Source: Vicinamibacterales bacterium
GTDB lineage: Bacteria > Acidobacteriota > Vicinamibacteria > Vicinamibacterales > UBA2999
NCBI GenBank assembly: GCA_050246635.1
Contig: JBFWVR010000002.1
Coordinates: 145,905 to 209,904, forward strand
DNA: 64,000 nucleotides
Reading direction: 5' to 3'
This document shows, one piece after another, positions 3,282-57,925 of this stretch. The translations under genes were made by a program, and so were the position numbers. Every line of letters starts with the position of its first letter. Position 1 is the stretch's first letter. The notes under the pieces are model-generated. The model saw only the letters and a program-made list of their open reading frames with translations, made no database searches and was not told the DNA's origin.

Positions 3282-3432
3282 CGGGACGCTCCTTCGGGCT
3301 CCACACGGTTCAGGTGGAGACGTCGGAATATAGCACTGACAGGGGCCCCGGGGGGTCAAACGTGCGCCCCCGCCACGGGCGCCCGGCCCCGGGGCGGTCG
3401 TCGCGGCGTGCTATAACTGGACAGATCAGCCC

Positions 3433-4380
3433 ATGACGAAAACGCGACCGAACACGCGCCGCCCGGCCCGCCGGCCGGCCTCGCACGCCGTGCCCGTCGG
3501 CATCACGCAGATGGCCTGCGGCGAGGATCCGAAGCAGAACCTCACGCGCCAGCTCGCGCTCGCCGAACGCGCCATGAAGGACGGCGCCCGCATCGTCTGC
3601 ACGCAGGAGCTGTTCCGGTCGCAGTACTTCTGCCAGGCCGAGGACCACCGCTTCTTCGCGCTGGCCGAGACCATCCCGGGCCCCTCCACCGACGCCTTTG
3701 CGAAGCTGGCGAAGAAGCACGGCGCGGCCGTGATCGTCTCGCTGTTCGAGCGGCGCGCCGCCGGGCTGTACCACAACACGGCGGCGGTCATCGACGCGGA
3801 CGGCGCGCTGCTCGGGGTGTACCGGAAGATGCACATCCCGGACGACCCGCTCTACTACGAGAAGTTCTACTTCACGCCGGGCGACACGGGCTTCCGCGCG
3901 TGGAAGACGCGCCACGCCACCATCGGCGTGCTGGTCTGCTGGGACCAGTGGTTCCCGGAGGGCGCGCGTGCGACCGCGCTGCAGGGCGCCGACATCCTCT
4001 TCTACCCGACAGCCATCGGCTGGCACCCGTCCGAGAAGCGGGAGTTCGGCAAGGCGCAGCACGAGGCGTGGGAGACGATCCAGCGGAGCCACGCCATCGC
4101 CAACGGGTGCTGGGTCTGCGCGCCCAACCGCATCGGGCACGAGATCGTGCGTGGCGCCGACGGCACGCCCGTGGACAAGGACGGCATCCAGTTCTGGGGC
4201 CAGTCGTTCGTCACGGCCCCCGACGGCCAGGTCGTCGCCCGCGCCTCCGTCGACCAGGAGCAGGTGCTGCTCGTGGACTGCGACCTCGACAAGGTGGAAA
4301 CCAGCCGCACGCACTGGCCCTTCCTGCGTGATCGACGCGTCGACGCGTACGACGCGCTGGGAAAACGCTTTTCCGACTGA
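3433..4380 (+). CDS. aguB: N-carbamoylputrescine amidase (carbon-nitrogen hydrolase family)
   Basis: CTQELF, YRKMHIPDDPLYYEKFYFTPGD, GVLVCWDQWFPE (catalytic Cys) and FYPTAIGW are typical of the family. Adjacent to agmatine deiminase. Confidence 0.85.
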   Translation: MTKTRPNTRRPARRPASHAVPVGITQMACGEDPKQNLTRQLALAERAMKDGARIVCTQELFRSQYFCQAEDHRFFALAETIPGPSTDAFAKLAKKHGAAVIVSLFERRAAGLYHNTAAVIDADGALLGVYRKMHIPDDPLYYEKFYFTPGDTGFRAWKTRHATIGVLVCWDQWFPEGARATALQGADILFYPTAIGWHPSEKREFGKAQHEAWETIQRSHAIANGCWVCAPNRIGHEIVRGADGTPVDKDGIQFWGQSFVTAPDGQVVARASVDQEQVLLVDCDLDKVETSRTHWPFLRDRRVDAYDALGKRFSD

Positions 4381-4404: not shown

Positions 4405-4431
4405 GCACACACTGAGGACACTGAACACACC
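4405..4431. repeat. 9-mer repeat, short inverted arm (ACACTGAGG ACACTGAAC ACACC)
   Basis: Reverse complement of the CAGTGTYTT units at 4552-4630. Lies 24 nt after the aguB stop. Confidence 0.75.
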
Positions 4432-4551: not shown

Positions 4552-4630
4552 GTGTCTTCAGTGTCTTCAGTGTCTTCAGTGTCTTCAGTGTGCTCAGTGT
4601 CTTCAGTGTGCTCAGTGTGCTCAGTGTTCC
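4552..4630. repeat. 9-mer tandem repeat GTGTSTTCA, 8 full units plus a partial
   Basis: GTGTCTTCA x4, then GTGTGCTCA/GTGTCTTCA alternating. Ends 32 nt before the aguA ATG. Confidence 0.9.
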
Positions 4631-19983: not shown

Positions 19984-20005
19984 GGTCTGATTGTATACGC
20001 CGGAG

Positions 20006-20239
20006 GTGCTGCACGAGGGTGCGGCACGCAGGTGCGGCACGGGGGTGCGGCACGGAGGTGCGGCACGGGGGTGCGGCACGAAGGTGCGGCACGGAGGTGC
20101 GGCACGAGGGTGCGGCGCGGGGGTGCGGCACGGGGGTGCGGCACGGAGGTGCGGCACGGAGGTGCGGCACGAGGGTGCGGCGCGGGGGTGCGGCACGCAG
20201 GTGCGGCACGGGGGTGCGGCACGGCGGTGCGGGACGTGT
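20006..20239. repeat. 13-mer tandem repeat GTGCGGCAC-GRRG, 18 units
   Basis: Strict 13-nt register from 20006. The variable 4-nt purine tail is GAGG/GCAG/GGGG/GGAG/GAAG. Fills the gap between the ADOP stop (20239) and the hydrolase start. Confidence 0.95.
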
Positions 20240-28412: not shown

Positions 28413-28441
28413 GCAGAAAAGGGGTCAGACCCCTTTTCTGC
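28413..28441 (-). terminator. Hairpin terminator downstream of the RraA-like gene
   Basis: Perfect 12-bp stem GCAGAAAAGGGG / CCCCTTTTCTGC with loop TCAGA. The GGGG/CCCC core is followed by a U-rich run on either strand. Confidence 0.65.
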
Positions 28442-28609
28442 CGCACCCTCGTGCCGCACCCTCGTGTGGCACCTCCGTGCGGCACCTCCGTGCAGCACCT
28501 CCGTGCAGCACCTCCGTGCGCACCACCGTGTGGCACCCCCGTGCAGCACCTCCGTGCCGCACCCTCGTGTGGCACCACCGTGTGGCACCTCCGCGCGGCA
28601 CCTCCGTGC
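28438..28609. repeat. 13-mer tandem repeat GTGYRGCAC-CTCC, 13 units (one of 12 nt)
   Basis: Same family as 20006-20239 but in reverse-complement orientation, with a pyrimidine tail on the plus strand. Abuts the RraA-like stop codon at 28609. Confidence 0.95.
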
Positions 28610-37345: not shown

Positions 37346-37393
37346 ACGAAGGTCACGAAGGGTACGAAGGGCGCGAAGGGCACGAAGGGCGCG
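37346..37393. repeat. 9-mer tandem repeat ACGAAGGGN x5 (left arm of inverted pair)
   Basis: ACGAAGGTC ACGAAGGGT ACGAAGGGC GCGAAGGGC ACGAAGGGC. 37346-37388 is identical to 46759-46801. Preceded by CTGATCGA (37337-37344). Confidence 0.95.
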
Positions 37394-37414: not shown

Positions 37415-38242
37415 TCACTGCAACGTGTCGAACCGTCGCTTCAGGCGAGACCGTTCGTGCTCCGCCGCCTCCACATCCTGTCTCGTGCGACTGATCCGGC
37501 TCGACAGGTCGCGCACCTCGGCTGCGGCTTCGTCCAGCGCGGCCTGGCGGCGGTCGCGTTCACGTTCGGCGCGCCCCAGCGCTTTGGTCAGGCTCTCGAG
37601 AGCCTTCTCGACCTCGCGGCTCCTCGCGACGGCCGCGTCGAGCTCCGCCTGGGCCGTTGCGACCGCGCGGGCCTTCTCCTTTGCCGCGGCGGCGTCCGTG
37701 GCCGCGCCCTTCTGCAACCGCAGGGCCGGCGGGGCCTTGCTCGCCCGCGGCGCCGCCTTCGGGGCGCGCGCGATGATGCCGGCGTAGGCCTCGAAGCCCG
37801 TCGCCGGCGTGAGCGGTTTCGCGAGCCGCCCGAACGGCTCCGCCGTCGGCAACGCGCGCAGGGTATCGGTCACCGCGGCCAGGACGGCGGGCGACGCCGT
37901 CTCGCCACTCTCGGCCAGCGCGGCCTTCGCCGCGTCGTTGGCTCGCGCCAGCGCCTCCCCGTGCGCGGTCTCGGCGCCGCGCAGGTCCGCGTCTTCCCCG
38001 CTGACGAGCCGCCGGTGCGCCACTCGCAGCGCCTCGGACGCCTTCACGAGCCGATCGAACACGACGCGGTCGCGCCAATACACCTGGTTCACCGCCCACG
38101 CCGCGAGCTGCGGCTTCACGAGCTTCCTGATCGCGGCGCCCTCCGCGCCGCCGGCCCGCTTCGCCAGCGCATTCCGCGCCTCCGTGAAGCCTTCCGGCGG
38201 CCCCTGATAAAGCGCATCGATCTCATCGTCGAACGAGGACAT
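37415..38242 (-). CDS. Hypothetical Ala/Arg/Glu-rich protein with C-terminal coiled coil
   Basis: 275-aa ORF MSSFDDEIDALYQGPPEGFTEARNALAKR...KPQLAAWAVNQVYW. The C-terminal 90 aa are heptad-like (AQAELDAAVARSREVEKALESLTKAL...). I recognise no family. Confidence 0.6.
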   Translation of the reverse strand: MSSFDDEIDALYQGPPEGFTEARNALAKRAGGAEGAAIRKLVKPQLAAWAVNQVYWRDRVVFDRLVKASEALRVAHRRLVSGEDADLRGAETAHGEALARANDAAKAALAESGETASPAVLAAVTDTLRALPTAEPFGRLAKPLTPATGFEAYAGIIARAPKAAPRASKAPPALRLQKGAATDAAAAKEKARAVATAQAELDAAVARSREVEKALESLTKALGRAERERDRRQAALDEAAAEVRDLSSRISRTRQDVEAAEHERSRLKRRFDTLQ

Positions 38243-38311: not shown

Positions 38312-38356
38312 GTGCTTCGTGCCCTTCGAGTCCTTCGGACCCTTCGTGTCCTTCGA
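38312..38356. repeat. 9-mer tandem repeat NCCCTTCGN x5 (right arm, inverted)
   Basis: GTGCTTCGT GCCCTTCGA GTCCTTCGG ACCCTTCGT GTCCTTCGA then TCAG. 38339-38358 is identical to 46914-46933. Abuts and includes the nrdJ stop. Confidence 0.95.
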
Positions 38357-41582: not shown

Positions 41583-41614
41583 ACACGGAGACACGGAGGC
41601 ACGGAGACACGGAG
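41583..41614. repeat. 8-mer tandem repeat RCACGGAG x4 (left arm)
   Basis: ACACGGAG ACACGGAG GCACGGAG ACACGGAG. Confidence 0.9.
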
Positions 41615-41740
41615 CCTATCGGCTCCGATTTCAGATGTCAGATTGAAGACTGGAAGACTGACGATGATCGCGGATTCGCCCTGGCCTATAAGCTGCCAAT
41701 CTTCGATCTGAAATCCGCCTTCTGAGACCGGAGCCGCAGG

Positions 41741-41790
41741 CTCCGTGCCTCCGTGTCTCCGTGCCTCCGTGTCTCCGTGCCTCCGTGTCC
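41741..41790. repeat. 8-mer tandem repeat CTCCGTGY x6 (right arm, inverted)
   Basis: CTCCGTGC/CTCCGTGT alternate six times. Reverse complement of 41583-41614, with a 126-nt spacer. Lies 31 nt downstream of the lipoprotein gene stop. Confidence 0.9.
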
Positions 41791-46160: not shown

Positions 46161-46808
46161 CTACCCCTGCCGGAACAGTTCCACCACGTCGGTCCGCCTG
46201 CGCAAGTCGGAGATCCAGTCGGTGATGAGCTCGCTGCGGCGCGCGGCGCCGAGCCGTTCGCGGATGAGCCCCGTGGCCTCCTCGAAGGGAAGGCCGCCGC
46301 GTTCGAACTCCTCGCGGTGCGCATTGAAGTAGGCGGCGATCTCCTGGTCGGTGGGGATGCCGGCGACGGCGAAGCGCTGGTCGAGGTACGCCTGGATGCG
46401 CAGGTCGTCACGCACCCACGCGCGCAGGCGCTCGGCCGTGAACCCGCCCTCGGCGAGCGCACGCGCGAAGGCCTCGTCCGAGTCGAAGCGCTGGCGTGCG
46501 ACGGCCAGGCGGGCCTCCACCGCCGCGGGCGCCGGCTCTGGCGGTGCGTAGCGCTGGACCTCCCGGAGCACGAGCTGCCGATCGACCAGCCGTGCCGCCG
46601 CGGCCGCGATCGGATCCTCCGCCCCCGTGCCATCGACCAGCCCCAGCGCGAGGGCGGTGCGGGCATCACTGAGCGTGATCACCTGCCCCCCGACGATGGC
46701 GAGCGTGCGTTCGATCAGTTCCTGGTGCGCGTGACTGACGGTGGGCGCGAGAAGGAGTACGAAGGTCACGAAGGGTACGAAGGGCGCGAAGGGCACGAAG
46801 GACGTCAT
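46161..46808 (-). CDS. SurA N-terminal-domain-like periplasmic chaperone (no PPIase domain)
   Basis: MTSFVPFAPFVPFVTFVLLLAPTVSHA signal, then AIVGGQVITLSD...EIAAYFNAHREEF, helical and SurA_N-like. An alternative start at 46940 (TGATG with the bamA stop) would add a GTK-repeat N-terminus. Confidence 0.55.
   Translation of the reverse strand: MTSFVPFAPFVPFVTFVLLLAPTVSHAHQELIERTLAIVGGQVITLSDARTALALGLVDGTGAEDPIAAAAARLVDRQLVLREVQRYAPPEPAPAAVEARLAVARQRFDSDEAFARALAEGGFTAERLRAWVRDDLRIQAYLDQRFAVAGIPTDQEIAAYFNAHREEFERGGLPFEEATGLIRERLGAARRSELITDWISDLRRRTDVVELFRQG
46750..46803. repeat. 9-mer tandem repeat ACGAAGGGN (left arm), overlaps the signal-peptide codons of the surA-like gene
   Basis: GAGAAGGAGT ACGAAGGTC ACGAAGGGT ACGAAGGGC GCGAAGGGC ACGAAGGAC. 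The unit order is identical to 37346-37388. Confidence 0.95.
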
Positions 46809-46865
46809 GCGCCCCGTCACCACAGGATGCCAGGCGCGCGCCCTCTCGTCCGCCGGCGCGCCGCC

Positions 46866-46931
46866 CACCTTCGTGCCGCCCTTCGTGCCCTTCGTGCCCT
46901 TCGTGTCCTTCGTACCCTTCGTGTCCTTCGA
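46866..46931. repeat. 9-mer tandem repeat NCCCTTCGT x7 (right arm, inverted)
   Basis: ..ACCTTCGT GCCGCCCTTCGT GCCCTTCGT GCCCTTCGT GTCCTTCGT ACCCTTCGT GTCCTTCGA. 62-nt spacer to the left arm. Lies 8 nt from the bamA stop. Confidence 0.95.
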
Positions 46932-46939
46932 TCCAGTCA

Positions 46940-49888
46940 TCAGAATGCCTGCCCCAGCGAGATGTGCAGCACCGATCCCCGCTCCCGGTCGCCGTTCGAG
47001 AGCATGCGGGGGTCGAGGTTGAAGCCGAGGTCGATCCGGAGCGGGCCGATCGGGGAGCGATACCGCACGCCGAAGCCGGCCGCGGTACGCAGCTCCCCGA
47101 GGCGGATGTCGCCGGCCCGCGCGAAGACGTTGCCGGCATCGAGGAACCCGACGAGGCCGAGGCCCTTCCAGTAGGGCGCACGCAGCTCGAGGTTCAGCAC
47201 GACGAGCCCGTTGCCACCGGCCGGGAATCCCTGCCGGTTCAGCGTCTCGTCGGTGCCAAGCCGGTCGAGCACGAAGCCTCGCACCGTGGTGTCGCCGCCG
47301 GCGAAGAACCGCTCGCTCGCCGGCAGGTCCTCGACCACCTCCACCTGCGGCTGGCCGTCCGGGCCCGGCACGGCAACCCCGTCCTCGTCGAGGATGGTGA
47401 CCTCACGGGGGAATCCCTTGGCCAGCCCCACCCGGGCGCTCGCCGCCAGGACGAAGCGGCTGCCGCCGGGCAGGCGGCGGTACGTCGAGGCCTGCATGTA
47501 CGACTTCACGAAGCCGACCTCGGAGCCCAGCCACCGCGGGCCCGTGGTCACGTCGAAGCCCAGGACCGCGCCGCGTTCGGGATCCAGCACGTCGTTCCTG
47601 GAGTCGCGCAGCACCGATCCGGTCACCGTCGAGAGCCGGACCTGCGGGAAGAGCCGGTCGACCAGCACCCGCTCCTCGGGGGCAATCTTCTCGTCGAAGA
47701 GCCGTGTGCGCTCCACCGAGTAGCGGGCAATCGCGGTGAGGCCGTTGTCGAAGCGCCGGCTGTACTCCCCCCGCAGGCCCCGGCGGCGGAAGTTGAAGCT
47801 GGTCCGGATCGCCTGCTCGACGAAGGCCGTGACCTGCGCGTCGCCCGTGGTGCCGAACGCGCGCGGCTCGCGGTACGTGCCGATCACGCGGTACTCGTTG
47901 AACCCGTAGCCGCCGGTGTCGGTCGTGTCCGGCTCGTCGACGCCGGGATCACGCGGGCGGAGGCTGATGCGGGTGAAGAGGTTGATCGCGCGGTTCTTGC
48001 CCCAGAGGTTGCGACGGCCGATCTCGAAGAAGACCCGCGGCGCGATCTCGAAGCGCTCGCTCGCCTGGTCGGTGTCCTGGTCGGGGCGATAGCGCCGGCC
48101 CGCCTCGACGCCGCCGCCGTACGAAATCGTCGTCGCGGGCGCCTCCTCGACCGTGATCACCACGTCGCGGTTCGTGCTCGCGCCGTGCGGCAGCTCGGCG
48201 AGCCGGACGCGGCGGAAGAGGCCCAGCGCGCTCAGCCGCCGCTGGCTCTCGGCGAGCGCGTCCTCGCCCAGCGGCTCGCCGGGACGCAGCGTGACCTCAC
48301 GACGGATGAGGTCCGCGCTCGTCCGATCGTTGCCGGTGACGAGGATGTGGTCGACGAGGGTCTGCGGGCCCTCCTGCACCGTCCAGTGCACGTCGACGGC
48401 GCCCTCGCCGGCCGGCTCCACCGCGGCGCTCACCGACACCTGCTGGAAGCCGTCGTTCCGGTAGTACTGGCGAATCGCCTGTTCGTCGGCATTGACCAGG
48501 GGCCGGTAGAACGGGCGCCCGGCCGTCAGGTCGAGCAGGGCCCGCACGTCCGCGTCACGTGCCGGCGACACCCCTTCCACGGTCATGGCGCGCACGGTGG
48601 TCGGCTGGCCTTCCTCGATCGCCAGGGTGATCGCCACCGGCCGGTATGTGTTCCCGGCACCGCCCGCCTCCGGCAGCACGGCAATCCGGGGCTGCACGCT
48701 GGCGGCGGTGAACCCGCGCACGCGGTAGAGTTCGGTGATGGCGGACGCGACCGCCGACACCCGCGCGTCGACGAACGGCTCGCCCGCCTCCAGCCGGAGC
48801 AGGCCCCGGATGTCCTCCATGCCGAGCTGCGACTGGCCCTCGACCTCGACACGCTCCACGCGGTGCAACGGGCCGCGGGTGACGGTGAACGTGAGCACCA
48901 GCTCGCCGCGTTGCTCCTCGCGGGTGTACGGCGCCGAGGCATCCCGATAGCCCTCCTGCCGGAGCGCCCGCTCGATGTTGCGGCTCGCGTCCTCGAGCAG
49001 GTCCTGGTCGACCGACCGCTCGGCACGGATCGGCACCAGCGTCTCGAGCCGGCCCGCGGGCAGGGGATCGCCCGTGATCACGACCTCGACGTGCGGCCCC
49101 GCGTCCACGGCGACGTCGAGGCGCGCGGACACCCCATCGAAGGTCACGGTCGGCTCGACCGACGCCTCGTAATACCCAGCCTGCCGCAGCGCGTCCTCGA
49201 ACGCCGCGACCCGCTCGTCCACGACGGCCCGATCGTAGGCGTCACCGGCGGCCAGGCCCAGGCGGGCCTGAGGCACGCCGGCCGGCACCGTGCCCTCGAT
49301 GTTCACGGCCGACAGGCGCGTGCGGGGACCCGCCGTGATGTCGAGCACGAGGTGCGCGTCCTCGGGCGAGCCGCCGGGCACCACGCGTGGGACGATCGTC
49401 GCCCCGCGATAGCCGCGTTCGGCATAGAACGTGCTCAACGTGCCGACGATGGCGGGCACCCGTGCCGAGGACGGCGTCGCGCCGTAGAGGTCGTCGATCT
49501 CGCGACGAATCCGTCCCGCGCCCACCGCCGGCTGCCCCGTGATCTCGACGTCCACCAGCCGGCGCACCGGCGTCAGCGCCCAGCGCAGCGCCACGGCGTC
49601 GGCCGTCCCGGCGTCGCTCGCGAAGATGCGCACGTCCTCGAACCGCCCCAGGCCGACGAGGTGATCGATGGACTCCCGCACGCGCTGCATCGACAGGGGG
49701 TCGCCGACCCGCGTCTCGATCAGCTCGCGGACCGACGGGTCGTCGACCACCGCGCCATCGATCTCGATGCGGACCGTGGCGATCGGCCGTCCGACGTAGT
49801 CGAGCACGTCGGCGGAGGCCGGCGCCGCGGCGAGGCAGGCACACACCAGCAGGACCGGCAGCACGGCACGGCGCATCGCGGCGGACAT
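46940..49888 (-). CDS. bamA: Outer membrane protein assembly factor BamA (Omp85 family)
   Basis: Signal peptide MRRAVLPVLLVCACLAAAPASA, multiple POTRA-like repeats, C-terminal beta-barrel ending HISLGQAF. The ATG overlaps the tamB stop by 1 nt. Confidence 0.85.
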   Translation of the reverse strand: MSAAMRRAVLPVLLVCACLAAAPASADVLDYVGRPIATVRIEIDGAVVDDPSVRELIETRVGDPLSMQRVRESIDHLVGLGRFEDVRIFASDAGTADAVALRWALTPVRRLVDVEITGQPAVGAGRIRREIDDLYGATPSSARVPAIVGTLSTFYAERGYRGATIVPRVVPGGSPEDAHLVLDITAGPRTRLSAVNIEGTVPAGVPQARLGLAAGDAYDRAVVDERVAAFEDALRQAGYYEASVEPTVTFDGVSARLDVAVDAGPHVEVVITGDPLPAGRLETLVPIRAERSVDQDLLEDASRNIERALRQEGYRDASAPYTREEQRGELVLTFTVTRGPLHRVERVEVEGQSQLGMEDIRGLLRLEAGEPFVDARVSAVASAITELYRVRGFTAASVQPRIAVLPEAGGAGNTYRPVAITLAIEEGQPTTVRAMTVEGVSPARDADVRALLDLTAGRPFYRPLVNADEQAIRQYYRNDGFQQVSVSAAVEPAGEGAVDVHWTVQEGPQTLVDHILVTGNDRTSADLIRREVTLRPGEPLGEDALAESQRRLSALGLFRRVRLAELPHGASTNRDVVITVEEAPATTISYGGGVEAGRRYRPDQDTDQASERFEIAPRVFFEIGRRNLWGKNRAINLFTRISLRPRDPGVDEPDTTDTGGYGFNEYRVIGTYREPRAFGTTGDAQVTAFVEQAIRTSFNFRRRGLRGEYSRRFDNGLTAIARYSVERTRLFDEKIAPEERVLVDRLFPQVRLSTVTGSVLRDSRNDVLDPERGAVLGFDVTTGPRWLGSEVGFVKSYMQASTYRRLPGGSRFVLAASARVGLAKGFPREVTILDEDGVAVPGPDGQPQVEVVEDLPASERFFAGGDTTVRGFVLDRLGTDETLNRQGFPAGGNGLVVLNLELRAPYWKGLGLVGFLDAGNVFARAGDIRLGELRTAAGFGVRYRSPIGPLRIDLGFNLDPRMLSNGDRERGSVLHISLGQAF

Positions 49889-52800
49889 CAGAAGGTGATC
49901 CTCTTGCGGACCTCGAGCGCGTAGGTGCGGTCCTCGTTCTGCGAGAGCACCCAGGCGAGGCTGTCGCTCTGGTCGAACTCCAGCAGGATGATCTCGTCGC
50001 GGATGGAGGACGAGAGGCTGCGGGCGTAGGTCAGGTAGATGCGATCCGAGATCCGCTTGCCGATCGTGACGCGGGCCGCCGGGTTCACGTTGAGCTGCGA
50101 CGACTGCTGGTACGGATCGACGAGCAGCGGCGTGATCTGGAACGTGTCCACGCCAAAGGTCTCCTCGACCACCTTGCCCACCTCGTTCGACAGCGCCCCG
50201 GTGAGGGCGCGCGTGGCGCGGGCCTGCAGCAGGTCCTGCTCACGCTGGTTCGGCGTGCGCAGCGAGGCCAGCTCCGCGTCGCCGCTCGGCGCCGTGTCGC
50301 TGAAGAGCAGCGTGAGGATGTCGACCGGCGCCAGCGGGGGGTCGGAGGTGAACTCCGGCTGGAGCCGCTCGGTCGTGCCCGCCATGCGCAGCGTCACCCG
50401 GTAGGTCTGGCCGGGCACCCGCACGCGCGTCTCGGCCTCGACGTCGAAGAAGGGCTGGATGCGGTTCGGGTTCGTGAAGTCGAGGCTGCCGCGCAGCACC
50501 ACGTACCGGCGCCCCTCGAACTCCACGTCCCCGCGGACGATGTCGGCGCGCCCGAAGAGCAGCGGGCGATCGAACGTGCCGCGCAGGTTCAGGTCCGCCG
50601 AGGCCACGATGTGCGCCTGGTCGTTGTCGATGCGCAGGCTGGACGGGGCCAGGATGCGGACGTCGTACCGCACCGGCAGCGTCGGCGCCGCCGCGACCGC
50701 GCCTTCCGGCACCGGCACACCCGTCTCCTCCGCCGAGATCCCCAGCAGGCTGCTCGTCGCGCCGGCCGTGCCCGACCAGGTGGCCGTCTGCACCGTCACC
50801 GTGCCGGTCAGCACCGGGCTCTCGGCCGGGCCCTGCAGCGCCAGGTCGGCGTCGACGACCGACCGCATGCCCTCCGGGAAACGCAGCCGCATGTCCTCGG
50901 CGTCCACCGTGACGTCGAACTCGCCGAGCTGGTAGCCACTGATCCCCACCCGCCCGCCGAACCGCACGTCGCCCCCGCCGAGCCGGCCCGTGAGGCCGTC
51001 CAGCCGCAGGCCGGCGGCGTTGAACGTGACAATGCCGTTGAGGTTCTCGAGCGCGTGCGGGAACGAGAAGTGGCGCAGCCGCCCGTCCGACACGAGCGCG
51101 TTGCCCGAGACGACCGGGCGATCGATTGGTCCCTCGATCGCGGCCGACACCTCCGCCCGACCCGAGCTGCGCACGTCGGGCAGGAAACCCTGGAGCACCG
51201 CGAGGTTGGCCGCGCCGCCCGCGCGAAGCGACATGACCGTGTCGGGCAGGTTCACCGAGCCGGTCAGGTCGAGCTCGGTGTCCTCGCCGACGAGCCGCAG
51301 CGCCGCCACGCGCAGCACCTGCCGGTCCACCGCGAGCCGGATCGGCCCGGCGTTGCGCAGCCGGTAGTCGTAGAACTGCAGGTCGACCTGCTCCACCGTC
51401 GTGTCGACACGGAGCGCGTCGGGATTGTAGAGCTCACCCACCACGCGGATCGTGCCGGACGCGACGGCCGTCGTGAACGGCGACAGCTCGGGGTCGAACG
51501 CGCGCACGTACGGGTCGAGCGACGTGTCGGTCACGCGGAACGACATCTCCGCGTCGCCTTCGTCCGTCATCGCCATGCGCCCCGTGCCCGACACCGTCAG
51601 CCGCGGTGACGCGGCCTCGACCTCGAAGTTCAGCAGCGCGTCGCGCACCGTCATGCGGCCCGTCACCTGGCCGATGCCCTCGGATCCGAAGAACAGGTCC
51701 CGCACGCTGATCTTCACGTCATAGCGGGGATCGTCGAAGGTGCCGCTGCCGGCGGCCGTGAAGTCGACCAGGCCGTTGAGCCGCGGGTAGCCCTCGAAGG
51801 CCGTGAGCTCGAGCGTCTCCACCGCGAGGCCACGGCCGTCGGCGTTGAACGAGTAGGTGCCGTTCCAGCCGACGAAGGCCGCGCCGGTGACCGTGCCCCC
51901 GCCCTTCTCCACCTCCATGCCGTCGAGCCGCACGCCGTTGCCCTCGAACCGCAGCGCCGCCGACGCCGTGGCGAACGGCTCGCCGTACGCGACGCCCCGA
52001 TCGATCGTGAGGCGTCCGTAGCCCAGCGGCTGCGTGTAGGCGCCGTAGAGATGGAAGTCACCCGATACCTCGCCGCTGACCGGGTAGTCCTCGAGATCGA
52101 ACGCGTCGAGGAAGTCCTGCACGGGGCGGCCTTCGACGCGGACCCGCGCGTCGATCTCCTCGCCCCCGTCGCTGCGCGGGAAACCCAGCGAGAACTGCCC
52201 GTCCACGCGGATTTCCGATCGCCCGTCGCGGATCACCGTGTTGCTGACGCTCGCATAGGCGTTGTCGATGACGACGTCGCCCGACACGCCGCCCCAGGTG
52301 ACGCCCCACGCGCGCATCGCCTGGGCCTCCATGCGGCCCTCGATACGCGGGCGGCGGAACGCCCCGAGCATCACGCCATCGAAGACCCCGACGCCGTCCA
52401 CCGGGATGGCCCTGGTGTCGGCGCCGAAGGCGGTCATCAGCCCCGCCAGCAGCCGGTCGCTCGCCTGCCAGTTGGTGCTCGTCACGTGGAACGGCAGGCG
52501 CGAGTCCTCGCCCCAGTCGGTCTGGCCCTCGAACGTGATGAACGTGTCGGGCGTCTGCACCACGCTCGGCCCGATGGCAATGCCGTCCTCGTCGAACGTG
52601 TAGGCCATGCCGCCGCCGATCGGCACGGGCCGCCGCGGGGTGTGGTTGCTGAAGGGGCCGTAGATGTCGGACCGTGCCCGCGCCACGTCGGCCGCGCCGG
52701 CGGCAAGCTGCCGTCCCGCGAGTCGCGCCCCGGCAGGTGCCGACACCGCAATCCGGCCGCCGCCCGATCGCTGGTCCCAGTGGCCAAGGGGCCACTCCAG

Positions 52801-53961
52801 CAGGTTGTCGCCCGAGGCCAGCCCCGCGAGCCGGATGCCACGCACCTCCAGCACGTTCGTGAGGCGCGTGAGATCCACGTCCGCGTAGTCCACCTGCAGG
52901 TGCGACACGGCCGGCTGGTCCGGATCGCCGATGGGCGCCATGCGGTAGCTGAACGCCGTGCGCCCGCCATAGAAGCCGGACTCGGCGTGCGTCACCTCGA
53001 AGCGCTCCGGCAGCCACACGAGCGAGCCACGCAGGTCGGGGAACCGGAACTCGTTGAGCCCCGCCTCCGCGCTCGTGAAGTCGCCGGTGAGCTCCCGCCC
53101 CCCCTTGAAGAGGTGGAAGACGCCGGTGAACTCGCCCGTGCCCGCGAGCGAGAACGTCTCGTTCGCCCAGAACAGCTCCCGCATGCGCGGGAAGTCGATC
53201 TCGGAGTGGTGAATCCGGTAGGTCTGCTCCGGCCAGTGCGCGAGGTCGACCGTGCCCGTGAGATCGGTCGTCGCGCCGTCGGTCTCGAGCGCGATCTTCT
53301 CGAGCACCACCTGTCCGCCGTCGATGCGGAAGGTGGTCTGCATGTTGGCCCACATCGGGACGAAGTCCTGGATGTGGATCGTGCCACCCGAGAAGGACGC
53401 GGTGCCGCGATACCCGCCGAGTTTGCCGACCGTCACGTCGAGATTCGGCGCCGTGACGCCCCACGGCGCGCCGTGGTCCTCGAAGACGAACTCGCCGCGA
53501 TACGCGTGCACGTACTGGAGCGTCGTGACCACCACCGGCGGGCCCTTGCGTGGCTCGCGTGGCGGGCCGTTCACGCGCGGCCAGGTGTGGCGGCCGCCCT
53601 CGAAGGTCTCGACGACCATCGTCCAGTCGGTCATCTCGATGCTGTCGAGCAGGATCTCGCGGTGGAAGAGGGCGCCCCAGGTCAGGGACACCTCGATGTG
53701 GCCCGCGGTGAGCCAGGGCCGCGCGTCGGGCGTGAGGCCCTCGACGACGAGGTCCTCCACGACGAAGCGGCCGGACGCGAGGTGGATGCCCAGCCGGCCG
53801 ATGTGCATCGGCCGGTCGAGCCAGTTGGATCCGGCGCGCTCGGCGCGCGCCCTGAGCGACGGGCCCAGGTCGACCGTGATCGTCGTCACGAGGGCGACGG
53901 CAATCACGACCGCCACCACAATGACAATCGCGCGGACGTGGCGGTAGGCCGCGCGCAGCAC
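49888..53961 (-). CDS. tamB: Translocation and assembly module protein TamB (AsmA-like, DUF490)
   Basis: 1357 aa. N-terminal anchor AIVIVVAVVIAVALVTTI, long beta-rich body, DUF490-like C-terminus (RVTIGKRISDRIYLTYARSL...ALEVRKRITF). GTG start 4 nt after the BCCP stop. Confidence 0.8.
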   Translation of the reverse strand: MLRAAYRHVRAIVIVVAVVIAVALVTTITVDLGPSLRARAERAGSNWLDRPMHIGRLGIHLASGRFVVEDLVVEGLTPDARPWLTAGHIEVSLTWGALFHREILLDSIEMTDWTMVVETFEGGRHTWPRVNGPPREPRKGPPVVVTTLQYVHAYRGEFVFEDHGAPWGVTAPNLDVTVGKLGGYRGTASFSGGTIHIQDFVPMWANMQTTFRIDGGQVVLEKIALETDGATTDLTGTVDLAHWPEQTYRIHHSEIDFPRMRELFWANETFSLAGTGEFTGVFHLFKGGRELTGDFTSAEAGLNEFRFPDLRGSLVWLPERFEVTHAESGFYGGRTAFSYRMAPIGDPDQPAVSHLQVDYADVDLTRLTNVLEVRGIRLAGLASGDNLLEWPLGHWDQRSGGGRIAVSAPAGARLAGRQLAAGAADVARARSDIYGPFSNHTPRRPVPIGGGMAYTFDEDGIAIGPSVVQTPDTFITFEGQTDWGEDSRLPFHVTSTNWQASDRLLAGLMTAFGADTRAIPVDGVGVFDGVMLGAFRRPRIEGRMEAQAMRAWGVTWGGVSGDVVIDNAYASVSNTVIRDGRSEIRVDGQFSLGFPRSDGGEEIDARVRVEGRPVQDFLDAFDLEDYPVSGEVSGDFHLYGAYTQPLGYGRLTIDRGVAYGEPFATASAALRFEGNGVRLDGMEVEKGGGTVTGAAFVGWNGTYSFNADGRGLAVETLELTAFEGYPRLNGLVDFTAAGSGTFDDPRYDVKISVRDLFFGSEGIGQVTGRMTVRDALLNFEVEAASPRLTVSGTGRMAMTDEGDAEMSFRVTDTSLDPYVRAFDPELSPFTTAVASGTIRVVGELYNPDALRVDTTVEQVDLQFYDYRLRNAGPIRLAVDRQVLRVAALRLVGEDTELDLTGSVNLPDTVMSLRAGGAANLAVLQGFLPDVRSSGRAEVSAAIEGPIDRPVVSGNALVSDGRLRHFSFPHALENLNGIVTFNAAGLRLDGLTGRLGGGDVRFGGRVGISGYQLGEFDVTVDAEDMRLRFPEGMRSVVDADLALQGPAESPVLTGTVTVQTATWSGTAGATSSLLGISAEETGVPVPEGAVAAAPTLPVRYDVRILAPSSLRIDNDQAHIVASADLNLRGTFDRPLLFGRADIVRGDVEFEGRRYVVLRGSLDFTNPNRIQPFFDVEAETRVRVPGQTYRVTLRMAGTTERLQPEFTSDPPLAPVDILTLLFSDTAPSGDAELASLRTPNQREQDLLQARATRALTGALSNEVGKVVEETFGVDTFQITPLLVDPYQQSSQLNVNPAARVTIGKRISDRIYLTYARSLSSSIRDEIILLEFDQSDSLAWVLSQNEDRTYALEVRKRITF

Positions 53962-53965
53962 GAGC

Positions 53966-54556
53966 CTACTCCACGACCACCAGGACCGTACCTGCCTCGA
54001 CCGACTGCCCCTCGGTCGCGTGGACCTCGCGCACCCGGCCCTCTCGCACGGCCTTCAGCTCGTTTTCCATCTTCATGGCTTCGACGACGACGAGGCCCTG
54101 TTTGGCCTTCACCTCGTCGCCCGCCGCCACGAGCACCCGCACCACCTTGCCGGGCATCGGCGCCGTCACGCGCTGCGGCCCGCTCCCCGCCGCGCCGCCC
54201 GCGTCCCGGCCACGCCGGCCCAGCCCGGCCGTCCGCACCGAGAGCGGCACGGTGACCCCGTTCACGTGGACGTCGAACCGGCCCGGCTCACGCTGCGGCA
54301 CGAGCGAGGCCTCGACCCGCCGCGTCGGCACGATCTCATCTGTGCCATCTGTCCCATCTGTGGCCCCAGTGGCATCTGTGCCATCTGTGCCATCTGTGGC
54401 CCCTGTGGCCCCGAGCAGCAGCGACCAGTCGGCGCCGCCGAGCGCCCGTGCGTCCACGACATGCCGCGCGCCGTCCACCACGACGACGAAGCGGTCGCCC
54501 TCACGCGTCACCACGACGGTGCGTGTCTTCTCCCCGGCGTCGATCTGCACCTGCAT
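53966..54556 (-). CDS. Biotin carboxyl carrier (biotinyl/lipoyl domain) protein
   Basis: C-terminal [14 protein letters not shown]...[16 protein letters not shown] (biotinyl-Lys motif). Atypical N-terminal domain. An internal (TDG/ATG) tract is encoded by the 9-mer array. Confidence 0.8.
54337..54408. repeat. 9-mer tandem repeat CATCTGTGS x8, inside coding sequence
   Basis: CATCTGTGC CATCTGTCC CATCTGTGG CCCCAGTGG CATCTGTGC CATCTGTGC CATCTGTGG CCCCTGTGG. On the minus strand it is in frame as [25 protein letters not shown]. Confidence 0.9.
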
Positions 54557-57518: not shown

Positions 57519-57630
57519 CGGCTTTGCCTTTCGGCGGGGGGAGCCGCTGCGGGGGATGAGCGACCTTATTGTGTGGGGAGGGAGGTTGTCAACAGAGGGA
57601 GCGGTAGCTCGCCAGCAACCGCGGCCACAC

Positions 57631-57666
57631 ACACCGAAGACACTGAACACACCGAACACACTGAAA
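57631..57666. repeat. 9-mer repeat, short inverted arm (ACACCGAAG ACACTGAAC ACACCGAAC ACACTGAAA)
   Basis: Four units, reverse complement of the 57796-57925 units. Same family as 4405-4431. Confidence 0.85.
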
Positions 57667-57795: not shown

Positions 57796-57925
57796 ATGTC
57801 CTCAGTGTCCTCAGTGTCCTCAGTGTATTCAGTGTGTTCAGTGTATTCAGTGTATTCAGTGTGTTCAGTGTGTTCAGTGTGTTCAGTGTATTCAGTGTGT
57901 TCAGTGTGTTCAGTGTGTTCAGTGG
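57796..57925. repeat. 9-mer tandem repeat GTGTNYTCA x14
   Basis: ATGTCCTCA, GTGTCCTCA x2, then GTGTATTCA/GTGTGTTCA units in strict 9-nt register. Ends 44 nt from the DUF1028 stop. Confidence 0.95.

Follow-up and report, generated by a model that had tools for sequence, protein, structure and literature searches.

A 9-nt repeat hairpin at the bamA/chaperone junction of a Vicinamibacterales bacterium, very probably read in part as a signal peptide

Introduction

In a 64,000-nucleotide stretch of contig JBFWVR010000002.1 from a Vicinamibacterales bacterium (Acidobacteriota), hereafter the window (GC content 71%), a gene for a BamA-like protein is followed on the minus strand by a gene for a SurA-like periplasmic chaperone, and at their junction two arrays of a 9-nt repeat face each other in inverted orientation, able to pair into a stem of about 45 bp. 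Repeat hairpins of this class occur throughout the lineage, and the one described here is a local example. It is probably a convergent simple-sequence-repeat pair of a type common in Vicinamibacterales, which has grown in the junction or reached it by copying, within the signal-peptide coding stretch of the chaperone, where it is tolerated and translated from the ATG coupled to the bamA stop codon. The 3′ arm is very probably read as protein and the 5′ arm plausibly so. As to the hairpin itself, we lean against the view that it has been selected as a regulator.

Architecture and predicted fold of the repeat pair

The bamA-like gene (46940–49888, minus strand; 982 aa in the list of open reading frames [ORFs], with Pfam matches to POTRA in six stretches at 3.3e-56 and to Omp85 at 3.5e-37) ends with the stop codon TGA at 46942–46940, and the first array sets in at 46931, 8 nt past this stop. 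This 5′, purine-rich arm (46866–46931, minus) contains about seven units of ACGAAGGGN, in the order TCGAAGGAC, ACGAAGGGT, ACGAAGGAC, ACGAAGGGC three times, and then GGC followed by ACGAAGGTG; that is, six regular units and one that is shifted by 3 nt through the GGC insertion. The loop is a spacer of about 64 nt (46802–46865, minus), within which there are further small stems; it contains the in-frame candidate starts GTG 46823, GTG 46820 and ATG 46808, the last of which (46808–46806) is placed 4 nt ahead of the second array. This 3′, pyrimidine-rich arm (46757–46801, minus) consists of five units CCTTCGYNN, in the order CCTTCGTGC, CCTTCGCGC, CCTTCGTAC, CCTTCGTGA and CCTTCGTAC. Tandem Repeats Finder (TRF) detected a period of 9 in both arrays, with 5.9 copies at 46878–46930 and 4.8 copies at 46759–46801, and an inverted-repeat search gave arms of 49 nt at 86% complementarity or of 42 nt at 93%. 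A pattern of two consecutive units, with up to three mismatches allowed, occurs 18 times in the window against 0.13 expected.

When the RNA from 46945 to 46740 of the minus strand was folded, its minimum free energy was −125.5 kcal/mol, against −85.8 ± 4.7 kcal/mol for 200 dinucleotide shuffles (z = −8.37), none of which was as stable (0/200). The stem is followed by ACUCCUUCUCGCGCCC, and the GC-rich hairpin with a U tract that characterizes an intrinsic terminator was not found. The first-pass annotation of this stretch had located the arrays and ATG 46808 exactly, as re-reading of the sequence showed, and the stable hairpin that it expected was confirmed by the fold; both arms lie in an open frame, with translations just as it had quoted them. 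Its remark that changes in copy number are frame-safe also stands: because the 9-nt unit is free of stop codons in all three frames on both strands, a change in copy number never breaks the frame.

The ancestral bamA/chaperone junction

The gene downstream of bamA (46161–46940, minus) would encode 259 aa from ATG 46940 or 215 aa from ATG 46808, with the mature part beginning at about 46727. It has 1360 homologues, essentially all of them in Vicinamibacterales/Acidobacteriota, and the top match, from a metagenome-assembled genome (MAG) of Vicinamibacterales, is 84% identical. The window protein by itself has no significant Pfam match; the best match in the PDB is PrsA (E = 0.015), and PF13624 (SurA_N_3) is matched weakly by 18 of 36 orthologues (best 4e-6). 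This weak evidence suggests a small SurA-N-like chaperone without a PPIase domain.

The junction was compared across 54 species. In 38 of them, the end of bamA and the start of the next gene share a TGATG or TAATG, and the ATG of the overlap is in frame with the conserved mature N-terminus of the chaperone, (Q/G)ELIERTLAIVGGQVITLSD, in 38 of these 38; the ancestral junction is a TGATG followed by a short, ordinary signal peptide. The window has the same overlap (TGATG, 46938–46942, minus), and its ATG at 46940–46938, which the first-pass annotation had named as a possible coupled start, occupies the ancestral, translationally coupled start position. The distance from the bamA stop to the ELIERT sequence of the chaperone has a median of 77 nt in relatives, compared with 218 nt in the window. 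Because the TGATG has been kept and the frame is open through both arms and the spacer, the repeat pair lies within the former signal-peptide coding stretch and not in an intergenic spacer. A promoter and terminator scan of 46400–47300, covering sigma-70 and U-tract patterns only, detected no such site between the genes, so that separate transcripts for bamA and the chaperone are without sequence support. Over the whole window, Rfam 15 at gathering score gave no match, and no tRNA or tmRNA was found by ARAGORN.

At the junctions of L021, L027, L030 and L034, the first 8–10 codons of the mature chaperone are tandemly duplicated at about 60–110 nt before ELIERT (e.g., GGCGATCTGATCGCCACAAGA twice). 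Since mature codons are duplicated in this way in several relatives, this is a further sign that the start of the chaperone gene is a hot spot of slippage.

The 3′ arm as part of a signal peptide

A reading of the sequence between the 3′ arm and the mature part of the chaperone, which complements a tabulation of in-frame starts extending as far as 46769, revealed no usable in-frame start, the next one downstream of 46757 being located inside the mature sequence. Thus, wherever translation begins, the h-region of any signal peptide of this chaperone must be FVPFAPFVPFVTFVLLLAP, with the 3′ arm read as FVPFAPFVPFVTFV. The rest of the h-region and the c-region, LLLAPTVSHA, is encoded by 46728–46756 (minus) and has small residues at −3 and −1 (S-H-A). 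The predicted peptide reads ...VVTGR-MTS-FVPFAPFVPFVTFVLLLAP-TVSHA↓HQ, with a Lys-rich n-region in addition if it is started at 46940, and signal peptidase is predicted to cleave after Ala71, between 46728 and 46727. This position matches the ASA↓Q and AAQ↓G (ASA/AQ) sites of the orthologues directly ahead of ELIERT, so that the product of the 3′ arm occupies the place of the orthologues' signal peptides, immediately before the mature N-terminus. On inspection, a charged n-region, an h-region of 10–20 residues and small residues at −3/−1, as in Sec-type signal peptides, are all present.

The signal peptides of most orthologues of the chaperone are ordinary and show no periodicity. A clade of eight (P0067, P0052, P0020, P0066, P0032, P0053, P0041 and P0042) has FVS/FAS/FVT-periodic h-regions that have decayed to varying degrees, and P0004, separate from this clade, has a periodic h-region as well; altogether, FVx-type (FVS/FVP/FAS) peptides encoded by a CCTTCGT-type array are found at at least three separate positions of the neighbour-joining tree. 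In L059 and L060 the coupled ATG is followed by (CCTTCGTNN)x4 as the h-region, with no complementary 5′ arm, and in L042 the CCTTCGT-type array is preceded by an unrelated (TGGTGATC)x8 array. L003/L004 have both arms at this junction, as an inverted pair built from the window's unit family, around a spacer of 114 nt that is unrelated to that of the window. The sisters of the window protein are non-periodic and contain single proto-units: PFV, encoded by CCC-TTC-GTG, in P0006 and IFVIFV in P0001. Judged from these sequences, repeat-derived signal peptides are recurrent at the chaperone gene. The first-pass annotation had supposed that the repeat was exapted as a signal peptide and had proposed an alignment of orthologues; the supposition agrees both with the mature sequence beginning right after the 3′ arm and with this recurrence, the same type of array encoding the h-region in at least three orthologue groups among otherwise mostly ordinary ones.

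The 9-nt unit has also been encountered inside genuine coding regions of diverse environmental bacteria (L092 199–241; L111 12642–12719; L138 12171–12230 and L120 10003–10053; L093 7270–7311). One strand is there read as (FVA)n in a signal peptide (MKKQTRSSRRLRRTRKLSVLVTFVAFVAFVAFVAFVYVVSAQ). From the other come (TKD/TKG)n stretches, which form flexible linkers behind a lipoyl domain and behind the membrane anchor of a membrane-fusion protein.

Where translation of the chaperone starts

Five in-frame codons, ATG 46940, GTG 46868, GTG 46823, GTG 46820 and ATG 46808, are candidate starts, and all would share one h-region and one cleavage site. Translation from ATG 46808 gives MTSFVPFAPFVPFVTFVLLLAPTVSHAHQ..., and translation from ATG 46940 gives MTGSKDTKGTKDTKGTKGTKGGTKVGG... 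in the same frame, which is open throughout and reads the 5′ arm as SKDTKGTKDTKGTKGTKGGTKV. In its frame ACG-AAG-GGC (T-K-G), the 5′ arm has a GC content at third codon positions (GC3) of 100%; the in-frame GC3 is 0.91 for the loop and 0.89 for the 5′ arm plus loop, as compared with 0.90 for the mature part. The frames in which the two arms are read, T-K-G/D and F-V-x, are those used where such arrays are unambiguously coding, namely in lipoyl/membrane-fusion linkers and in other signal peptides. In the folded ensemble, ATG 46808 is unpaired with a probability of 0.91, and the following 12 nt (+4 to +15) with a probability of 0.08; pairing of this segment, as modelled, should hinder binding of a free 30S subunit at ATG 46808.

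A parallel is provided by L076 (reverse strand, ~3380–3500 of the reversed contig), where the stop codon of a TPR-protein gene overlaps an ATG (ATGA) and a CGAAGG-family hairpin is in frame from there as MTRRTRRIRRTRRVRRGAIGFVAFVIFASFVSFVAC. The R arm is read as TRRTRRIRRTRRVRR, the n-region; after a short loop, the Y arm is read as FVAFVIFASFVSFVAC, the h-region plus lipobox. The downstream gene encodes an unrelated sulfatase-like lipoprotein (mature sequence SIDTLRADHLPAYGY). L092 is another in-frame case, again in an unrelated gene.

ATG 46940 is favoured as the start because the TGATG has been kept in frame, the GC3 is coding-like, the arm frames are those of coding arrays and L076 provides a parallel. 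Each of these arguments is modest when taken alone, and the statement that translation most likely still begins at the coupled ATG 46940 is suggestive only.

Repeat hairpins as a class in the window and in relatives

The pair at the bamA junction is not alone. At least six inverted pairs with units of 8, 9 and 13 nt were detected in the window by TRF (4407/4552, 20001/28439, 37346/38315, 41583/41741, 46759/46878 and 57629/57802). One of them, the D pair (37346–37390 and 38315–38356), is of the same family as the bamA-junction arms and lies 9 kb away from them. Its array D2 (38315–38356, minus; 5′-arm family) begins at the stop codon of the class II ribonucleotide reductase gene and is identical to the 5′ arm (46931–46889) at 40 of 43 nt; its array D1 (37346–37390, minus; 3′-arm family), just upstream of an MFS transporter gene, is identical to the 3′ arm at 43 of 45 nt, including the order of unit variants. 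Because the arms match those of the D pair unit variant by unit variant, some process appears to copy arms between loci. The D arrays bracket a gene for a 275-aa coiled-coil protein (37415–38242, minus), which has only weak coiled-coil matches of ATG16/CENP-F type in Pfam. In L005, the 84% relative, this gene is conserved in place and the stop codon of the ribonucleotide reductase gene is followed by an orthologous (CACGAAGCG)x3 array. A transposon origin of the D pair, with the 275-aa gene as cargo, was therefore rejected, since L005 has the gene at the same place, bordered on one side by another array family, and since Pfam shows nothing for it beyond the weak coiled-coil matches.

In relatives, about 27 inverted pairs were found in 0.95 Mb, with units of 7–13 nt and spacers of 2–300 nt, most of them at junctions where the genes of other species overlap or lie close together. 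The pairs have a polarity, the purine-rich array coming first on either strand, which is observed in six of the six window pairs and in about 21 of the 26 pairs in relatives. For the CGAAGG family in environmental contigs, a complementary cluster follows within 350 nt downstream in 20 of 97 arrays and is found upstream in one, 77 of the 97 being solo. The pattern scan of metagenomes behind these figures has limited specificity, as it also matches coding TKG, HEG and TKA repeats in unrelated taxa with GC contents of 0.21–0.74, and what was taken from it is limited to the polarity statistic and a handful of clear cases. Outside the paired CGAAGG-family arrays lies a terminal motif, TT(N)ACCAC on the left and GTGGT(N)AA on the right, with unrelated spacers of 19–260 nt between the arrays (L066, L078, L095, L104, L110, L113, L115, L130, L137, L155 and L168, from metagenomes of unrelated samples). 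The window's own copies of the family end in GATC and not in this motif.

The arrays change in concert and rapidly. At orthologous sites the unit differs by species (AAGTTAC, AAGTTCA, CAGTTGC, AAGTGAG or GGAGTCC), and the arms remain complementary. L039 and L043 are 99.0% identical in the adjacent gene and differ about twofold in the copy number of the outer arm, which points to fast slippage.

Several hairpins of relatives deserve mention in their own right. The junction between an NtrC-like gene and a histidine kinase gene is tightly coupled in about half of the species and carries arrays in the others; in the window it is short or overlapping. Hairpins of 7-mers occupy it in L039 (12783–12906), L043 (12786–12909), L040 (12959–13087), L044 (12759–12826), L050 (12764–12853), L026 (12836–12900), L020 (12848–12987) and L059 (4250–4440). 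Their units are related and yet species-specific (AAGTTAC, CAGTTGC, AAGTTCA, AGTTAAA, AAGTGAG and GGAGTCC), and the kinase starts behind them have no obvious Shine-Dalgarno sequence. Nested pairs occur in L039 (15060–15300) and L043 (15075–15250), where an outer (CCACGGT)n pair has (CAGTTGC)n in its loop, and in L046 (19916–20365), where an outer GAACGAA/CGTTCTT pair encloses an array of TGTTCTGC. The largest pair seen is that of L005 (241–415 and 503–642), with (AGGGTGCCA)x21, a spacer of 87 nt and the complement x15.7. Whichever strand is folded, the predicted energy is about −340 kcal/mol; a 510-aa gene follows downstream, and nothing equivalent to the pair was seen at this place in the window.

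Comparison with known repeat systems

The nearest known description is that of the Xanthomonas GGGAATC type, and the element at the bamA junction is of the same kind but of a different sequence family. In Xanthomonas the GGGAATC heptamers, and in Nostoc the GGGGA(C/T)T heptamers, form short-unit tandem arrays genome-wide, chiefly between co-oriented ORFs (Rehm et al. 2015, PMC4692102). A Xanthomonas genome contains 70–75 convergent array pairs, with one array per strand, which are able to form stem-loops; the G-rich strand lies at most 50 bp after a stop (sense) or before a start (antisense), the copy number is variable, the single or paired state is kept between species and there is no link to insertion sequence (IS) elements (PMC4692102). 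Features in common are a tandem unit of 6–9 nt, convergent arrays, the purine/G-rich strand directed toward the centre, and a G-rich array close behind a stop between co-oriented ORFs, which here begins 8 nt past it. The GGGNATC consensus with at least four G3 tracts and short loops is not found here, since the unit is ACGAAGGGC and three G3 tracts are present, the fourth being 12 nt away. The Vicinamibacterales repeats also differ in phylum and in the sequences and lengths of their units, there being many families of 7–13 nt in one genome, and G-quadruplex (G4) potential is not common among them. Moreover, unlike in the Xanthomonas account (PMC4692102), the 9-nt arrays are also found in frame inside genes, one arm serving as the core of a signal peptide. 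What is new here is the occurrence of many unit families in one genome, a whole hairpin in frame in a signal peptide, and recurrence at one gene across an order.

The opa genes of Neisseria contain coding CTCTT repeats in the leader-peptide region, which are translated as part of the hydrophobic leader and whose copy number shifts by slipped-strand mispairing. The likeness lies in a pyrimidine-rich repeat in the signal-peptide coding region that is read as its hydrophobic part. However, the opa unit of 5 nt switches the frame, resulting in phase variation, and has no partner array or hairpin, whereas a 9-nt unit, as found here, alters nothing but peptide length; with such a unit no opa-type frame switching, and hence no phase-variable repeat in that sense, is to be expected.

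Other systems have only single features in common with the bamA-junction element. Mycobacterial interspersed repetitive units (MIRUs) are intercistronic tandem repeats in mycobacterial operons, with frame-preserving units and small ORFs that overlap the flanking stop and start and so keep the coupling, but their units are 46–101 bp, direct only, with no inverted partner or hairpin, and do not lie in a signal peptide. Cyanobacteria have intergenic heptamer repeats, the short tandemly repeated repetitive (STRR) sequences, and Beggiatoaceae have TAACTGA repeats, of which the Beggiatoa genome contains 169 direct sets versus one indirect (MacGregor 2015, PMC4679880). These heptamers resemble the present repeats in being short tandem units near start codons, lineage-typical and occasionally within ORFs; they differ in being almost always direct, in the dominance of a single unit sequence and in the lack of a stem. 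Repetitive extragenic palindromic (REP) sequences and their BIME and REPIN assemblies are abundant extragenic palindromes, often located just downstream of genes or inside operons, whose doublets are mobilised by RAYT transposases (PMC3733652). They likewise form inverted doublets and long hairpins with conserved arms and a variable spacer, transcribed within mRNAs, but REP arms are single imperfect palindromes of 20–40 nt tagged with GTAG/CGTC and not normally read as protein, whereas here the arms are tandem arrays. No consistent GTAG/CGTC tag was found at the ends of pairs F (the bamA junction), D, A, E and H, and no RAYT gene was seen among the window proteins scanned, although the whole genome would be needed for this question. 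A literature search found nothing on such repeats in Vicinamibacterales or on tandem repeats of Vicinamibacter, and, for Acidobacteria more widely, only the REP paper.

A model for the junction and its alternatives

How could such a hairpin have come to be tolerated between two genes, and how could it be translated? The arrays would arise and change by replication slippage, plus copying from arm to arm or from locus to locus. The insertion would persist because the unit is 9 nt, and the purine arm would supply a harmless Lys/Thr/Gly-rich, net cationic n-region and its complement a hydrophobic h-region; with a cationic arm followed by a hydrophobic one, the whole hairpin in frame still resembles a signal peptide. 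Ribosomes ending bamA would re-initiate at 46940, and their helicase activity would melt the stem of about 45 bp. In untranslated mRNA, the stem would bury the first codons behind the internal starts, and the 45-bp duplex would be a substrate for RNase III, whose cuts in the 3′ arm would sever the start from the body of the gene. As a side-effect, synthesis of the chaperone would stay dependent on translation of bamA, and gating of this sort, as a side-effect of the modelled hairpin, is physically plausible.

Several points weigh against this reading, probable as we consider it. A purely neutral model does not account for the strict polarity, and the persistent co-varying hairpins elsewhere could reflect selection for the stem over neutral homogenisation. 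Stems might perhaps be favoured for holding the stop and the start near each other, or for shielding a C-rich stretch from Rho. The searched collections contain no relative above 84% protein identity, so that there is no empty site for comparison and insertion is indistinguishable from expansion in situ. An open extension of 44 codons is expected by chance with a probability of about 45% at 71% GC, and is in frame in 1/3 of cases, giving a joint probability of about 0.15; since an open in-frame extension is thus fairly likely by chance, the case for initiation at 46940 is kept at the strength given above. The L003 sequence reads its 5′ arm in an unfavourable frame (EGH) and offers no start ahead of it, so that the start there must fall in the loop; therefore, a loop start can work.

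One alternative, doubtful in our judgment though with several observations in its favour, is that a non-autonomous mobile element of foldback, MITE or REPIN type, with tandem 9-mers as its terminal inverted repeats, was inserted between bamA and the chaperone gene. It would explain why both arms match the D pair down to the order of unit variants, and arms of 42–49 nt with 86–93% complementarity are indeed what terminal inverted repeats would look like. The fixed polarity is as such repeats would show, the CGAAGG family is dispersed over many metagenome contigs with a shared end motif on its paired copies, pairs are nested inside the loops of other pairs, and RAYT-like "TIRYT" transposases that have long TIRs (terminal inverted repeats) on either side are known from other Acidobacteria (PMC3733652). 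However, neither the bamA-junction pair (flanks ...TGATGACTGG and ACTCCTTCTC...) nor the D pair (flanks ...GTGCCTGA and CTCGATCAGG...) has a target-site duplication, there being no direct repeat beyond a trivial 3 nt. The interiors of same-family pairs are unrelated: alignments of loops (A vs H, F vs L003, F vs the D interior, F vs E and A vs E) all fell within the range of shuffles. What the D arrays enclose is a resident gene that L005 has kept as well, flanked there by an orthologous array at one end and by another array family at the other end. In addition, the CGAAGG-family arrays are mostly solo, different array families often adjoin each other, arm copy numbers are very unequal, and no transposase domain was found among the 16 proteins scanned from part of the window.

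It is unlikely, in our estimation, that the hairpin is a dedicated regulatory RNA whose stem was selected to set the BamA:chaperone ratio through a block of initiation at the loop starts, RNase III processing or decay, or attenuation of read-through. The stem is very stable, ATG 46808 is exposed while the codons behind it are paired, the same pair recurs at the same junction in L003, which belongs to a different clade, and other operon junctions keep their arms complementary as the unit sequence drifts across species; RNA structure does modulate translational coupling, the models of which have been reviewed (PMC12548453). Yet 38 of the 54 relatives have a direct TGATG-type overlap with no hairpin, the closest relative (84%) among those that lack it, and many junctions of no functional relation to this one, and even coding regions, have the same architecture. 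The loop is not conserved between the window and L003, and there is no terminator-like tail. A comparison of sense and antisense fold energies in co-oriented contexts (8 better in sense versus 6 in antisense) shows no consistent bias, which is uninformative by itself. The proposal of the first-pass annotation that the hairpin gates translation or stability of the chaperone mRNA relative to bamA was thus not sustained.

A bolder proposal, which we regard as speculative and improbable, is that purine-first/pyrimidine-second hairpins are a self-propagating element class of Acidobacteriota, that their polarity is mechanistic and that in-frame copies supply ready-made signal peptides. If this is true, the polarity might be due to protection from Rho, the C-rich arm emerging second and never being exposed single-stranded, or to head-to-head addition of repeats at broken DNA ends; such elements would repeatedly provide the material from which export signals are born and reshaped, and the bamA junction and L076 would be two independent examples.

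That the G-rich 5′ arm acts as a G4 modulating transcription or translation, as proposed for the GGGNATC repeats of Xanthomonas and Nostoc, is very unlikely: the arm has GGG every 9 nt, with three consecutive GGG separated by 6-nt loops, and its location just past a stop on the sense strand fits the rule for GGGNATC repeats (PMC4692102), but the fourth G-tract lies 12 nt away and the duplex with the 3′ arm is far more stable. As a general explanation G4 formation was rejected, since most unit families of this architecture (e.g., ACACACTGA, ACACGGAG, AAGTTAC and GAACGAA) lack G3 tracts. Chance similarity or an assembly artefact, for which nothing was found, can be set aside in view of the fold (z = −8.4), the 18 matches against 0.13 expected and the same architecture in many independent assemblies, long contigs included.

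Neighbouring genes and other arrays in the window

The bamA-like gene is preceded, as in relatives, by a TamB-like gene (49888–53961), and the order TamB-like, BamA-like, chaperone, Rce1-like (opposite strand), NtrC-like, histidine kinase and class II ribonucleotide reductase is the same in the 84% MAG.

The remaining pairs of the window are also located around genes. A pair with the unit ACACACTGA (4407–4430 and 4552–4627) lies between the CN-hydrolase and agmatine deiminase genes. An 8-mer pair, ACACGGAG/CTCCGTGY (41583–41614 and 41741–41787), separates a 187-aa ORF from the ribonucleotide reductase gene; the 126-nt spacer between its arrays has a lower GC content and is itself palindromic with a (GAAGACTG)x2 mini-array, and the whole (41583–41787) folds at −133.6 kcal/mol (z = −10.3). 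A third pair, with the unit ACACACCGA in 4 and 13.7 copies (57629–57665 and 57802–57924), is again at a gene junction. The arrays of a 13-mer, CGGGGGTGCGGCA x18 (20001–20236) and its complement x13 (28439–28609), are inverted at a distance of 8.2 kb and bracket three tandem paralogous genes for MacB/FtsX-type permeases of about 990 aa each; one of the two adjoins a terminator-like AAAAGGGGTC...GACCCCTTTT hairpin.

A lone 9-mer array (54337–54409; CACAGATGG on the coding strand) lies within the ORF 53966–54556 (minus), where it encodes 25 in-frame residues in the linker of a biotinyl-carrier-type protein (Biotin_lipoyl, 9e-21); the start of this ORF and the stop upstream of it share a TGATG. 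At the corresponding linker position L005 also has an array (2341–2427), extended by a second unit family. Between convergent genes at 2590–2730, a purine array (GCGAAGGTT CGAAGGGCA CGAAGGCGG) right after a stop is followed by a terminator-like hairpin, GTGGGCGGCC-GATCA-GGCCGCCCAC, and then by a CTTCAAT-type pyrimidine array. Since purine and then pyrimidine arrays flank the hairpin, both genes, each read on its sense strand, have their stop followed by a purine-rich array.

Implications

The N-terminus annotated for a BamA-linked periplasmic chaperone is thus built from a simple-sequence repeat, and its start cannot be called from the sequence alone. Automatic annotation of such lineages will often misplace starts or invent repeat-rich N-termini. 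The Vicinamibacterales, a large and poorly studied soil lineage, have many repeat hairpins at operon junctions that are otherwise coupled, with a polarity as strict as that of the Xanthomonas pairs, which points to a common, still unexplained rule; this polarity and the copying of arms alone are the points most worth pursuing. A stem of 45 bp in a translated region, directly past a stop/start overlap, provides a concrete case for models of coupling by unfolding versus re-initiation. Finally, a 9-nt repeat and its complement can encode both halves of a signal peptide, which would be a simple route for export signals to lengthen, shorten or arise.

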